Below are positions 30,935 through 60,768 of a stretch of DNA of 64,000 nucleotides, in pieces. This DNA comes from Dictyostelium discoideum (lineage: Eukaryota). The DNA lies in NCBI GenBank assembly GCA_000004695.1, contig CM000150.2:3488001-3552000 (forward strand), read 5' to 3'. Position 1 is the stretch's first letter, and the number at the start of each line of letters is the position of its first letter. Position numbers and translations under genes: made by a program. The notes beneath the pieces were generated by a model. That model was not told the DNA's origin. It worked only from the letters and a program-made list of their open reading frames with translations, and did not search any database.

Positions 30935-31427
30935 TTAATTCTTCAAAAATAATGATTTATCTATAGTCATTCCTAAAATTACCCAACCTGCCATAAATGA
31001 TACTCCACCAATTGGAGGAAGTTTCTATAATTTTTAAAAAATAAAAATTTTAGTTTTTTTTTTTTTTTTTAATAATTACTATTTTTCTATTTGTAAGTGA
31101 TATATAATATAATGATAAATTTTTTTTTTTTTTTTTTTTTTTTTTAATAATTACTATTTTTCTATTTGTAAGTGATATATAATATAATGATCCACTAAAT
31201 AATAATATTCCACTTAAAAACATTGGGCCAACAATATTTTGTTGTGTTGAGAAGGGAACAAGGAATAAGGCAAATGAATGATAAAGATGGTATTGTTGTC
31301 CAATTTTCCAAATTTCTTGACGTGCCACATCGGGAACTTTTTTCTTTAATCCATGTCCACCATAAGCACCTGAAATTATAGCACTACAAGCAACAACTCC
31401 ACCAATTTTCCACCAAAGTTCATTCAT
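30935..31427 (-). CDS. TMEM256 / DUF423 family small membrane protein, copy 2 (tandem paralog, ~90% identical). Exons (minus): 31155..31427, 30935..31024.
   Basis: MNELWWKIGGVVACSAIISGAYGGHGLKKKVPDVARQEIWKIGQQYHLYHSFALFLVPF... Exon 2 is KLPPIGGVSFMAGWVILGMTIDKSLFLKN*. The same GTAATT/ATAG splice architecture. Flanking 3' sequence is homologous to copy 1. Confidence 0.7.
31069..31192. repeat. Tandem duplication of a ~46-bp unit (aataattactatttttctatttgtaagtgatatataatataatgat) at the exon1/intron boundary of TMEM256 copy 2
   Basis: Two copies are separated by a poly-T run. They duplicate the ..SLTNRKIVII exon end and its GTAATT donor (the ORF track shows ..SLYYISLTNRKIVII twice). Confidence 0.7.
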
Positions 31428-32904: not shown

Positions 32905-32959
32905 CTTTTTCTCACCATTGTCAGTAAGATCTTAGATTTCTATATATATACATTTAACA

Positions 32960-34817
32960 ATGATCAAAGCATTAGCAGCAGTTAAAAAACAAATTGAAGA
33001 AATAAATGAATGTAAGTTTTTATTTTTTATATTTTATTTTTTATTTTTTATTTTTTTTTTTCTTTATTAGTATCATCAAGTGACACTAATAATAAATTTT
33101 ATTATTTTTTTTTTAATTTTTTAATTTTTTTAATTTTTTTTATTTATTTTCTAAAATTAAAAAAGATGAAAAAAGAATTGGACCAGATTGTAATTTATCA
33201 CAATTCCAAGTAACATTAGAGAATTTTAATAAATTAAGACAAGCACAAAATGCAGTTATATTAGCTAAACAAAGTAAAGCAAATAGTGGTAAGATAGTTG
33301 AACCAACCGAAGCACAATTGGTAGCCAATTTCATTGAATGGTTAAAGGGTAAAGGATTTGATGAAAGTAAATGTAAAGTAAAGATTGATAGAAACACATC
33401 AGAGGGTACTGGTTTAGTTGCAACTCAAGACATTAAAGAGGGAGAGGATTTTGTAGAGATACCAAGCAACCTTTTCATTACGACTGCAGTAGCATTCCAG
33501 GGATTGGGAAAACCACCAATTTTAGAGAATGACCGTTTAATTCAATCGATTCCAGGTATTTTATTATCAATTTTTTTAGTTAAGGAATTGTCCAACCCAA
33601 CCTCTGAATGGGGACCATATATAAAACTATTACCAAAACAATACAACACCGTCTATTATTGGGGTCTCAAGGAGTTTACCCAATTCAGAGGCTCACCAAA
33701 TTTAGAGTATGCCATGAGATATGTTCGTGGTGCCATGCGTCAATATTGTTATCTCTACTCAATGATTGATCGTACTCAAAGTAATATTATGCCAATTTCA
33801 TCATTTACATGGGATGCCTTTGTTTGGGCCATTTCAACCGTTCAATCACGTCAAAATCCAGTCTATGCAGGTAATGGTAATGGTAGTATTATGGCTTTGA
33901 TTCCATTTTGGGATTTCTGTAATCACTCAAGCACCGGTAGCAAAATCACCTCATTCTATCACATGGATTCCAATTGTATGACCAGTGGCGCCATAAAGGA
34001 TTTTAAAAAGGGTGAGCAAGTTTACATGTTCTATGGACCACGTGATAACACTCAATTGTTAATGCATGCTGGTTTCGCAACTAAAACCAATCTCCATGAT
34101 TCTTATCCATTCGAATTACATTTGTTAGAAGGTAATCATGAAATTCGTCATGATAAAGTTCATCTCCTCGAAGAACGTGGTATTAGAGATGGTGTCGTTG
34201 TAAACTTAAATCAAAATCCAACCTCAAATGAACTCCCACTCGAATTGATTCCATTCTATCGTATCTATGCCCTCAGTGAACAAGAAACTCGTGCAATCGC
34301 ACCACCACAAGTACCTGGTGAACATAATCATCATCATGGCCATCAACTCGAACTTAAACCATTGGCTTTCAAAATTATCACTCAAGAGAATGAAGAGAAA
34401 GCTTATTCAAATTTGGTTCAAGCACTCAAAGGTAAACTTGCTTCTTATCCAACCACTTTAGAAGAGGATGAACAAGAATTGAAAAAGAATCCACCTGCAA
34501 ATCAAAGATTCATTTTATACACTAAAATCAATGAAAAGAAAATTTTAGATAGAAATATCAAATATCTTGAATCTTTAATTAAAAAAGGTGTTATGAATGT
34601 TACCTTCAAATTACCAGAATTAGTTGAACATACTGAACATGCTAATCATGATCATGAACATGGTGATAATTGTAATCATGAAGATCATGGTAGTCATGGT
34701 CATTCTCATGGTGGTGATGATAGTCATGGTCACTCTCATGGTGGTAATGATAATCATAATCATTCACATGGTGGTCATGGTCATTCACATCAACATGGTG
34801 CAAATTGTAACCATTAA
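32960..34817 (+). CDS. SETD3-like SET-domain protein methyltransferase with Rubisco-LSMT-type substrate-binding region and a His/Gly-rich C-terminal tail. Exons: 32960..33011, 33166..34817.
   Basis: Exon 1 MIKALAAVKKQIEEINE + T ends at a GTAAGT donor. The exon-2 acceptor is AAAAAG, giving ..YEKRIGPDCNLSQFQVTLENFNKLRQ.. like the SETD3 N-terminus. FIEWLKGKGF..GTGLVATQDIKEGEDFVEIPSNLFITT matches SETD3/LSMT FxxWL..GxGLxAxxDI..GE..xxIP. The tail HEHGDNCNHEDHGSHGHSHGGDDSHGHSHGGNDNHNHSHGGHGHSHQHGANCNH is in frame. Confidence 0.75.
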
Positions 34818-35264
34818 ATAAACAATCAAAAAAAAGTTAAAGAAAAGGAAAAAAAAAAAAAAAATATTAGAATACAATACAAATAATATATGTTTAGAAT
34901 TATCAAATGTAAAGGATCGAATAAATTCTATTTAAATAATTAAAAACTTTTCAAATTAATCAAATTATTGTGAAAATATCAAACTAATTTTCAAGATAAT
35001 TAATTTCTTTTTTTTTTTTTTTTATTCAAAAATTTTCTTTTTTATAATTTTTTTTTTTTTTCTTTTTTTTTTTTTTTTATGTTTATTAATATGCTAATTA
35101 AAAATAAATAGTACTATTATTTTTTTTATTGTTATTAATGTTATTATTTTATTATTATTATTATTATTAATTCCTTTGATGGTTTTTTTTTTTTTTTTTT
35201 TTTTTTTTCTTCTTTTTTTTTTTCTTCTTTTTTTTTTTTTTTTTATGCACCTATATGTATTATT

Positions 35265-35694
35265 TTATAAAGTATATCCTCTACTTTGAAGAAATTTTGT
35301 TGCTTCATCAACTAAATCAACATCCATTTTATCAATTGTTTGAATATAAGATTTAGCTTCGTCGACTTCATTATCTTTGAAACCAAATAGTTTCAAAGTA
35401 TTTACAACTTCAATGATTAATTCATCTTTTCTTGAACGGAAATCTCCAGAGAGGAAAATGGATTCACCTTCTTTTGACATAATTCTATCCCAAATGATAT
35501 TGTTTTCTCTTTCATAACCTACATCTGATACTAAAATATGTAAATATCCATCATGTTTGGTCATGGTAGCAAAGTGATTGTTTCTAAAAAATACACATAG
35601 TTCATCTTCTTTTAAGTGTTCTTGGATTAATGACAAACCATAATCTGTTAATTGATTACTATTTGCGAAATCATTAACTTTTTATTTATTTATT

Positions 35695-35732
<38 letters not shown>

Positions 35733-36099
35733 ATAAAATAAAAGTGTTAGAATTAGTACTCTATTTTTTTATTATTAAATATTATTAATGAAACTATACT
35801 TTTTTGTTGTAACTCTGGTTTTGCATTTGGAAAACTTTGATCGAAAGTAACAATCTTTGGAACTAAATCGTTATAATTTAAGTGGCCAATAAGTTGCTTG
35901 ACCTCTTTTTGATTTGGATCTACAATCCAACCATGAACCAATTTAATATTTAAATAATCAAAAATTTGGCATGGTTCAGTCTTTTCAAATCCTTGAATAC
36001 TGTCAAAGTATATATTTACAATTAAACCCTTCTCTAAACTTGGTAAAACATTTTTATTATAATCTTCTAATATTTCTAATACATCTTGATTCTAAGGAA

Positions 36100-36152
<53 letters not shown>

Positions 36153-36185
36153 AAAAAAAAGTTAATATTTAAAGTTTAGTGATAA

Positions 36186-36224
<39 letters not shown>

Positions 36225-36869
36225 ATATACATACTTCTTTATAAAGGCTTTTAGCATGTTTCATAATTAAATCACCAAGTTTTTTAATTGTAACAAATTG
36301 AATATCAGGATCTAAATAAATTTTTTGAGAGAGTAATAAAACATTTGCAATTGAAATCAATGGACATGGTCCATTCTCATTTTGAAGGATAATTGAAACT
36401 TCTTTCTTAAGGTAAGTGATTCTCTTTACTCTATATCTATTTTCAGTTGGTCCAATTGGTTCGTCATCGATAAGTTGAACACTTAATTTAAATACCAATG
36501 ACTCGTAATCTTTGCCATTATCCCAATATGATGCACCTTCGTCACCTTCTATATGGAACCATAAATTATTTTCATAAACTCCAATCACTTTTTATTATTT
36601 TAATTATTTTAATTAAAAAAATAAAAAAATAAAAAAATAAAAAAATTAAAAGAAAAAAAAAAAAAAAAAAAAATGAAGTTAGTAATGACATAACATTTTT
36701 TAATAAACATTAACACTATAATAAAATTGATGTAATTACCTGTTCCAGCACCTTTTGGTGTCATTACTCTTGATCCTGCAAAAAAACCATACCTTTCACA
36801 TGAGGGTCTTGAAACATCAAAATCGATCAATTTTCCATCTTTTGATTTATATTGAAAAGTATCTGCCAT
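35265..36869 (-). CDS. MINDY-family (FAM63/DUF544) Lys48-specific deubiquitinase. Exons (minus): 36740..36869, 36235..36587, 35800..36091, 35265..35677.
   Basis: Catalytic motif QNENGPCPLISIANVLLL (MINDY QNGPCPL..N.L.L). Downstream LHILVSDVGYERENNIIWDRI ~ MINDY-1 LYLLVTDQGF..VVWE. Junctions are GTAATT/AAAAAG (phase 1), GTATGT/CCTTAG (phase 0) and GTATAG/AAAAAG (phase 1), all frame-consistent. An (AAAT)11 repeat sits in intron 2. Confidence 0.8.
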
Positions 36870-38124: not shown

Positions 38125-38839
38125 TATAATAATTATAATTATTATTATTTATTTTTTTATATATAGATATCAAAAACTTGTATTTAGACATAACTTATAT
38201 AAACTTAGAGAAGAGAGAGATATGTCACCAAGAGTTGTTTCAAATTTACTCACAAATATGTTATATGAAAAAAGATTTGGACCATACTTTACTGAACCTT
38301 TAATTTGTGGTTTGGAAGGTCCAGATAATACACCTTTCATTAGTGGTATGGATCTCATTGGTGCTAGCGTTGCAACTGATGATTTTTTAGTTGTTGGTAC
38401 TATGACTCCTGCAATGTATGGTGTTTGTGAAACTTTATACAAAAAAGATATGGTATGTTATTTTTTTATTTTTTTATTTTATTCTCAAAAATAAAATTCA
38501 ATAATGTATCGCGCGAGATTAAACTAACAATCATCATTTTTTTTATTTTATTTTTTTTATTTTTAGAATGAAGATGATCTTTTTGAAACTATTTCACAAT
38601 GTATGTTAGCAAGTTTAGATAGAGATGCTCTTTCTGGTTGGGGTGCCATTGTTCATGTAATGTAAAGTATTTTAGTTTATTAAATTATATTTTGTTTATT
38701 CTTATGTTGCCATTGCTTAAACCAATATTAATTATTTTTATTTTTTTATTTATTCTATTTTATAAAAAAAAAAAAAAAAAAAAAAAAAAGTACTCCAACT
38801 CAAGTTATCACAAAGAAATTATTAGGTCGTCAAGATTAA
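37818..38839 (+). CDS. psmB3: 20S proteasome subunit beta type-3. Exons: 37818..38005, 38167..38452, 38567..38661, 38791..38839. 205 aa.
   Basis: [33 protein letters not shown].. is ~65% identical to human PSMB3 [54 protein letters not shown] and DLFETISQ are conserved. The C-terminus [20 protein letters not shown] ~ [20 protein letters not shown]. All four junctions are GT..AG with consistent phases. Confidence 0.9.

Positions 38840-59266: not shown

Positions 59267-60768
<1,502 letters not shown>

Follow-up and report, generated by a model that had tools for sequence, protein, structure and literature searches.

The gene at positions 32960 to 34817 of the forward strand, in a 64,000-nucleotide stretch of Dictyostelium discoideum DNA (contig CM000150.2, positions 3,488,001 to 3,552,000; hereafter the window), encodes a SETD3-type methyltransferase whose reading frame continues into a histidine-rich C-terminal tail. 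This tail is a correct observation, neither a chance reading nor an artefact. It is a clade-specific and conserved addition to a known enzyme. As to function, we lean, by a modest measure, towards a SETD3 orthologue that acts as the human enzyme does, with the tail as a reversible regulatory binder of divalent metal, most likely Zn2+.

The window has a base composition of about 20% G+C. Sequence reading and splicing arithmetic give the gene two exons, a spliced coding sequence of 1704 nt and a product of 567 amino acids, which is identical to the D. discoideum AX4 protein XP_646263.1 (EAL72234.1, UniRef100_Q55D68). The gene itself is already annotated, and its product is labelled 'SET domain-containing protein' in the annotation and 'protein-histidine N-methyltransferase' in UniRef. 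Literature searches by accession (Q55D68, XP_646263) returned no papers, those for SETD3 together with Dictyostelium returned incidental mentions only, and none was found that deals with the tail.

The tail is present in the messenger RNA. The 90%-identity cluster of the product includes a 567-residue member carried by the Logan contig L004 (run SRR24091725), which at 1828 nt cannot contain the full genomic gene of 1858 nt. Aligned to the window, L004 matches positions 32921 to 33011 and continues directly at 33166 (...AAATGAAT|ATGAAAAAAG...); because the intron is missing, the contig comes from spliced RNA. Past the junction the alignment is free of gaps, at 99.6% identity, across the entire His-rich segment and the TAA codon to 34847, and therefore no splice or earlier stop, either of which the preliminary description of this DNA had named as a refutation, takes the tail away. 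That description had placed the tail in the reading frame of the body, which L004 confirms for the spliced transcript through to an intact stop codon, and the tail string that it quoted, HEHGDNCNHEDHGSHGHSHGGDDSHGHSHGGNDNHNHSHGGHGHSHQHGANCNH, is exactly residues 515 to 567 of the translated product. That the tail is an artefact of annotation, assembly or frameshift, or is removed from the mature mRNA by splicing, is a practically negligible prospect for which nothing was found to speak: apart from the intron-less contig with both tail and stop codon, at least seven independent assemblies agree with the AX4 reference on the frame, and no orthologue makes use of either of the other two frames.

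Two further uses of the contigs were rejected. The run of A at the 3' end of L004 is no proof of polyadenylation, as the genome itself has 16 A at 34849-34864. A soil metagenome contig from the Joint Genome Institute (JGI), L001 (1937 nt), is genomic rather than a transcript, with its intron kept; it is Polysphondylium-like, has the intron at the same position as the D. discoideum gene, and supports conservation of the intron position only. Ten bases of L004 (AGGGTACAGG, positions 1793-1802), ahead of its terminal A-run, are not in the AX4 genome (window 34848 onward) and could come from a difference between strains, from a library artefact or from a chimeric assembly.

The body of the protein is of SETD3 type. 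Both of its Pfam domains score above curated cut-offs, and they are arranged as in SETD3, with SET followed by Rubis-subs-bind. In a sequence search of the PDB, human SETD3 was the best match (E=3e-54, 187 bits), ahead of Rubisco LSMT (90 bits) and SETD6 (40 bits). An AlphaFold2 (AF2) model of the product, computed with 15 homologues, reached a mean predicted local distance difference test score (pLDDT) of 80 and a predicted template modelling score (pTM) of 0.77. The first 20 Foldseek matches of this model are all SETD3 structures (E about 1e-29; target-normalised template modelling scores of 0.74-0.80), with complexes of SETD3 and actin peptide placed first (0.75-0.80) and with LSMT (E=4e-21) and SETD6 (E=3e-16) found later. 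A scan of the product against NCBIfam identified no family, as expected for a eukaryotic protein. In the predicted structure 498 residues of the product form a well-folded enzyme, in which a single internal loop is floppy, and the tail of 69 residues is floppy as well. Assignment of the body (residues 1-498) as a SETD3 orthologue is well supported by the sequence comparisons and the modelled fold, with one catalytic-residue difference as a caveat.

The roles of functional residues were taken from the structure paper on SETD3 and actin peptide (PMC6400499), and the human residues were mapped onto the product via a HMMER alignment, with the exception of Arg75, which lies outside that alignment and was placed by MAFFT. 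Sixteen of the 19 side-chain functional residues are identical to those of human SETD3 (in human numbering E104, R215, Q216, R254, Q255, N256, W274, D275, N278, H279, I284, Y288, Y313, R316, H324 and F327), and most of these sixteen are invariant across 13 dictyostelid sequences. The catalytic residues N248, W266, D267, N270, H271, Y307 and R310 correspond to human N256, W274, D275, N278, H279, Y313 and R316. The pocket for actin His73, which consists of W274, D275, I311, Y313 and R316 in the human enzyme, is made up of W266, D267, M305 (a conservative replacement of Ile), Y307 and R310. At the S-adenosylmethionine (AdoMet) site, E97, R246, N270, H271 and F321 are identical to their human counterparts, as are the actin-peptide contacts R209, Q210, Q247, I278, Y282 and H318 (human R215, Q216, Q255, I284, Y288 and H324). 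Asn256 is replaced by Phe in the lysine-methylating LSMT and SETD6, and Asn is known to confer specificity for histidine over lysine (PMC6400499). N248 aligns with this residue in the motif SRQN/TRQN and is invariant in the 13 dictyostelid sequences. The SETD3-type body of the preliminary description is thus upheld by domains, sequence, fold and this diagnostic Asn256. The substrate peptide is conserved, as PDB chains named 'Major actin' match actin segment 63-102, to which SETD3 binds, at top score, and an actin gene from which the substrate peptide might be read was searched for within the 64-kb window without success. Catalytic activity on actin would be expected.

The tail is composed of 30% His, 17% Gly, 9% Ser and 16% Asp plus Glu with a single Lys (about 21 His and 11 Asp/Glu), and past residue 505 (ELVE-H506) its only hydrophobic residues are two Ala. 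About three imperfect 10-residue repeats of the HGHSHGG type are flanked by GDNCNH on one side and by the C-terminal HSHQHGANCNH on the other. HxH motifs number 8 in the AX4 tail and 6-16 in the orthologues, and Cys always adjoins His. In its disorder, its dense HxH and its two Cys-x-His motifs the tail resembles the metal-binding His-rich tails of SlyD/UreE type and the loops of ZIP/ZnT transporters. A Cys near the position of the first Cys-x-His motif is also found in D. purpureum and in the dictyostelid P0007 of EukProt, and the conserved terminus HQHG[AP][NG]C[NK]H spans the range between D. discoideum and Polysphondylium violaceum and occurs in the JGI contig as well. As the tail is the only His-dense stretch of the His/Gly/Ser type in the 64-kb window, it is no chance open reading frame (ORF). 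Two candidate signals at the C-terminus were rejected: a CaaX box at -NCNH or -CKH, since the Cys is at -3 and not at -4, and a type 1 peroxisomal targeting signal (PTS1), since there is no terminal L or M.

All dictyostelids have another His cluster, which lies on a surface loop of the C-terminal lobe. In three deeper lineages this loop carries a Cys motif, S[AS][NS]CGH (SANCGH, SASCGH, SSCGH), that resembles GANCNH of the tail. Human SETD3 has HLLGDSAIDR at this position, without a His cluster.

The His-rich tail is found in every full-length dictyostelid orthologue examined, from Cavenderia to Dictyostelium, in nine species or lineages: four D. discoideum or D. cf. discoideum assemblies, two D. 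citrinum assemblies, D. firmibasis, D. dimigraforme, D. purpureum, Polysphondylium violaceum, the JGI contig, P0007 and Cavenderia fasciculata, in which the repeat unit is HGHSHGG[KQ]PCHGHGGNDAHGHSHG. The tails are 47-124 residues long, with 2 to about 7 repeats and a His fraction of 26-35%. Repeat copy number varies even among isolates of D. discoideum, D. cf. discoideum and D. citrinum, and despite the changing number the His frame is always kept. The Ser codons of HSH are TCT/TCA in D. discoideum and D. firmibasis and AGT/AGC in D. purpureum and the JGI contig, and the repeat units differ from each other by synonymous changes, so they are no fresh microsatellites. These synonymous changes, together with the switch of Ser codon class, form a pattern that points to selection on the tail peptide. 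In deep comparisons of aligned columns, the tail is 67% identical, as against 53% for the body. An entry from Acytostelium is flagged as partial and ends exactly at the expected start of the tail. The Cavenderia fasciculata protein P0023 (XP_004359524.1) has no central SET core, passing straight from ...LYDFFNKTP to ...HDKLHVLEERG, and keeps its N-terminus, C-lobe and a His tail of 124 residues; the gap is probably a wrong gene model rather than a true loss.

Outside the dictyostelids no such tail was encountered among the SETD3-like proteins surveyed. The body without its tail, searched exhaustively with HMMER against 1.84 billion representatives, yielded 146 proteins at E<=1e-30. Among the best 150 SETD3-like representatives, at least 8 His in some 30-residue window occur in dictyostelid entries only, the median being 3, which agrees with the view of the preliminary description that the tail is foreign to described SETD3 proteins. 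The closest amoebozoans outside the dictyostelids, Balamuthia mandrillaris and Filamoeba sp., have no His tail and possess Ser/Lys-rich C-terminal tails. In 24 of 151 SETD3-like representatives the last 40 residues have a net charge of at least +6; as about one in six is strongly basic-tailed, a disordered C-terminal appendage is common and lineage-variable, and the His-based form is that of the dictyostelids. A notable subset of SETD3-like proteins of other protists (P0024, P0027, P0029, P0040 and others), for instance those of Balamuthia (SKKKKRNRNRNKKK) and Filamoeba (K11), carries poly-Lys/Arg ends, and these ends may be nuclear localisation signals or basic patches that attract actin.

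In the mechanism that we propose, the folded body would transfer the methyl group of AdoMet to the N-tau of actin His73 as in the human enzyme. Actin residues ~66-84 would lie in the groove of the SET/iSET lobe, with His73 stacked on Tyr307 (human Y313) within a pocket that is shallow and that Asn248 makes specific for histidine. The disordered tail would begin after the last helix, where human SETD3, too, is no longer crystallised and can be dispensed with in vitro. The human construct that was crystallised and is active comprises residues 2-502 (PMC6400499), and the tail is read as an accessory module because it is attached where this construct already ends. It would reversibly bind divalent transition metals, with Zn2+ the most likely, and metal loading or protonation would convert a strongly anionic, extended tail into a neutral or cationic, compacted one. 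Such a switch might tune the location of the enzyme, its self-association or its encounter with a very acidic substrate, and the His cluster in the surface loop may be an older and smaller counterpart of the tail. This metal-binding interpretation is suggested by the density of HxH, the Cys adjoining His, the conserved terminal Cys/His motif, the disorder and the strings similar to those of zinc transporters. SLC30A1 (GHGHSHGGHGHGHG) and the His-rich regions of SLC39A7 contain nearly identical strings, which are zinc-binding or zinc-transporter sequences (PMC13027442), and in Dictyostelium the lineage-specific His-rich extension of AdcA binds nickel-nitrilotriacetic acid (Ni-NTA) (PMC3001460).

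Several points weigh against this interpretation. Metal binding is a reasonable prediction from the composition of the tail, and any regulatory consequence of it is putative. The tail alone, compared with all PDB chains (phmmer, E<=10), gave 0 matches, a homology search made uninformative by low-complexity filtering. The polymorphic repeat number fits a loose constraint, and no single tail site is universal, since D. purpureum and P0007 have no terminal Cys motif. On the side of the enzyme, Dictyostelium actin presumably carries N-tau-methyl-His73, as older protein-chemistry literature and deposited Dictyostelium actin structures indicate. Besides I311, which is Met, three contacts are changed: N154 to G, M252 to Q and P259 to Y. 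The AdoMet-binding Arg75 aligns with Glu66 (exon 2), is Glu or Asp in all dictyostelids, and is retained as Arg in coral and protist homologues, in a MAFFT alignment that is soft in this N-terminal helix. Arg75 is a ligand of the AdoMet carboxylate, and R75A in human SETD3 causes a ~400-fold loss of kcat (PMC6400499); AdoMet binding may therefore differ, and activity is not guaranteed. The replacement itself, as aligned, may reflect either altered cofactor binding specific to the lineage or an artefact of the alignment.

Other functions of the tail were considered. A pH-sensing electrostatic module similar to hisactophilin, whose net charge flips from negative to positive as cytosolic pH drops through 6.5-7, would provide a pH-gated attraction to acidic actin or membranes without metal, and would be compatible with metal binding. 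The calculated net charge of the tail is +5 at pH 6.0, -0.5 at pH 6.5 and -6 at pH 7.0, a sign flip common to all orthologues, and the basic C-termini in 24 of the 151 SETD3-like proteins, Balamuthia and Filamoeba included, suggest that a positive appendage is useful. The charge curve, however, depends on a generic His pKa of 6.5; a sensor that is purely electrostatic would have no use for the conserved Cys-x-His motifs, hisactophilin is folded and not homologous to the disordered tail, and human SETD3 has no basic tail. We consider this explanation unlikely, though worth keeping in sight. The tail might also be a substrate of histidine methylation that tunes its metal affinity, either by a METTL9 orthologue producing 1-methylhistidine at HxH or, less plausibly, by SETD3 in cis. 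METTL9, a different histidine methyltransferase overlooked in the preliminary description, targets HxH in which x is A, N, G, S, T or C (PMC12269839, PMC13027442), and the tail, with x = G, S or N, fits this consensus at the 8 motifs of AX4 and at up to 16 in other species. The listed METTL9 substrates include GHSHG and GHGHSHGGHGHGHG peptides that resemble tail strings, and methylation lowers their zinc binding (PMC13027442). A putative METTL9 orthologue is known in D. purpureum (PMC12269839), but it was inactive on two human substrates in vitro and its Motif I deviates. As for the version in cis, many His of the tail precede Gly, like actin His73-Gly74. Human SETD3 binds actin via the hydrophobic and acidic residues Y69, I71, W79, D80 and D81 around His73, however, with ~100-fold weaker binding of I71A alone (PMC6400499), and the tail, which is without hydrophobic residues of this kind, offers no comparable contacts; SETD3 has moreover been described as having a single protein substrate (PMC12269839). 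Self-methylation of the tail by the SETD3 domain, the auto-substrate of the preliminary description, is accordingly unlikely, and methylation of the tail by either enzyme is a decidedly weak candidate for its function.

A tolerated low-complexity expansion without specific function, kept by replication slippage, has to be weighed as well. The Dictyostelium genome is rich in repeats, and low-complexity tracts are frequent in it. The 30-nt tandem repeat is copy-number polymorphic among isolates, another His-rich run is located in the window at about 59815, and the His-rich domain of AdcA is dispensable for AdcA localisation (PMC3001460). Against slippage stand the retention of composition and frame across the deepest splits of Dictyostelia, the synonymous differences among repeat units and the switch of Ser codon class, the conserved non-repetitive terminus HQHGANC[NK]H, the parallel conservation of the internal His loop, and the greater conservation of tail columns than of body columns in deep comparisons. 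This explanation is likewise a poor prospect. Finally, tail and internal His loop together could form a metal- or pH-gated switch that couples methylation of actin His73 to Zn2+ or pH, and that is perhaps itself histidine-methylated, by a METTL9 orthologue at HxH or in cis; this is a speculation to which we give little credence.

The tail is a moderately interesting and easily tested lead, and represents no new kind of system. The usual view of SETD3 is that of an enzyme with one substrate, and we know of no physiological regulator of it. Dictyostelium is genetically tractable and famed for its actin biology, for endosomes rich in zinc and for an actin-binding pH sensor that is rich in histidine. 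A disordered His/Cys tail on SETD3 throughout the clade, with strings matching those of zinc-transporter loops and of METTL9 substrates, offers a cheap and direct way to ask about metal or pH regulation of actin histidine methylation. If the switch and the methylation of the tail were both true, this would be the first cross-talk of two protein-histidine methylation systems on one polypeptide. If the tail were inert, it would still be a natural 'His-tag' that has been conserved, and one that probably comes along when Dictyostelium lysates are purified on Ni-NTA.

Coordinates of the gene, its domains and the elements of the tail are collected in the table below.

Features of the SETD3-type gene, in window coordinates (aa, residues of the product)
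Feature	Positions	Strand	Basis
5' untranslated region, minimum extent	32921..32959	+	L004 alignment begins at 32921, right after an Illumina adapter remnant
Exon 1 (ATG at 32960, 17 codons + 1 nt)	32960..33011	+	Sequence and splicing arithmetic; joined to exon 2 in L004
Intron (GTAAGT...AG, 154 nt, 8% GC)	33012..33165	+	Missing from L004
Exon 2 (TAA stop at 34815-34817)	33166..34817	+	Gap-free 99.6% alignment to L004
3' untranslated region, minimum extent	34818..34847	+	L004 aligned up to 34847, then A-run
SET domain including iSET insertion, aa 98-308	33405..34037	+	Pfam PF00856, E=1.5e-10
Rubisco-LSMT-type substrate-binding domain, aa 342-478	34137..34547	+	Pfam PF09273 (Rubis-subs-bind), E=2.8e-21; helical in AF2 model
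Internal His-rich surface loop, aa 401-410 (PGEHNHHHGH)	34314..34343	+	pLDDT <50 at 401-405 and 407-410
Disordered His/Gly/Ser/Asp-rich C-terminal tail, aa 499-567 (69 residues)	34608..34814	+	AF2 pLDDT 29-36
First Cys-x-His motif, C520-N-H522 in GDNCNH	34671..34679	+	Sequence; GD[ND]C[ND]H conserved in D. discoideum group
30-nt tandem repeat in tail, 3.1 copies, encoding [DN]D[SN]H[GN]HSHGG	34687..34779	+	Tandem Repeats Finder (TRF) score 130, 85% matches, no indels
C-terminal Cys-x-His motif, C565-N-H567 in HSHQHGANCNH-COOH	34806..34814	+	Sequence comparison

Genes neighbouring the SETD3 gene in the window are located at 31050-31427 (-), 35265-36588 (-) and 38222-38494 (+), and were compared with loci L002 and L003. 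The order DUF423 protein, SETD3 and MINDY-type deubiquitinase is common to D. discoideum, D. firmibasis and D. purpureum. Next comes a proteasome-subunit gene in D. discoideum and D. firmibasis only, and D. purpureum has an unannotated minus-strand gene instead. This conserved neighbourhood is ordinary synteny and no operon. Elsewhere in the window, a His/Gln homopolymer-like run of ~30 codons at 59815-59905 (+), open in one frame, is of a different sequence type from the tail. It is situated between ORFs 59503-59811 and 59907-60323, which resemble the halves of a CNOT9/Rcd1-like protein, and is either a coding insert or an intron.

Among known systems, human and animal SETD3 (EC 2.1.1.85) share with the dictyostelid protein the two-domain architecture, the fold, the His73 pocket and most AdoMet and actin-peptide contacts, and human SETD3 has a disordered extension at the same position after the last helix. 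The dictyostelid protein differs in the residues at Arg75, N154, M252 and P259, and adds the internal His loop and the 47-124-residue tail rich in His, Gly, Ser and Asp. The ZIP/ZnT regions of SLC39A7, SLC30A1 and SLC30A5 contain HxH-dense strings (HGHSHG, GHGHSHGGHGH) nearly identical to those of the tail; these are, however, loops or N-termini of membrane transporters, whereas the tail is the free C-terminus of a soluble methyltransferase, and the likeness is compositional, with no demonstrable homology. Bacterial metallochaperones of the SlyD, UreE and HypB type possess disordered C-terminal metal-binding tails rich in His, Asp, Gly and Cys. Their architecture, in which a disordered tail follows a folded enzyme or chaperone, is like that of dictyostelid SETD3, but they are not homologous and belong to another kingdom and another pathway and, unlike them, SETD3 has to our knowledge no metallo-enzyme client. 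Two comparisons come from the same organism. The H domain of AdcA is, like the SETD3 tail, His-rich, lineage-specific and, in its own case, able to bind Ni-NTA, but it is N-terminal, consists of contiguous poly-His clusters and is not found in P. pallidum, whereas the SETD3 tail occurs in all dictyostelids sampled. Hisactophilin is also His-rich and actin-related, but is a small, folded and myristoylated protein.

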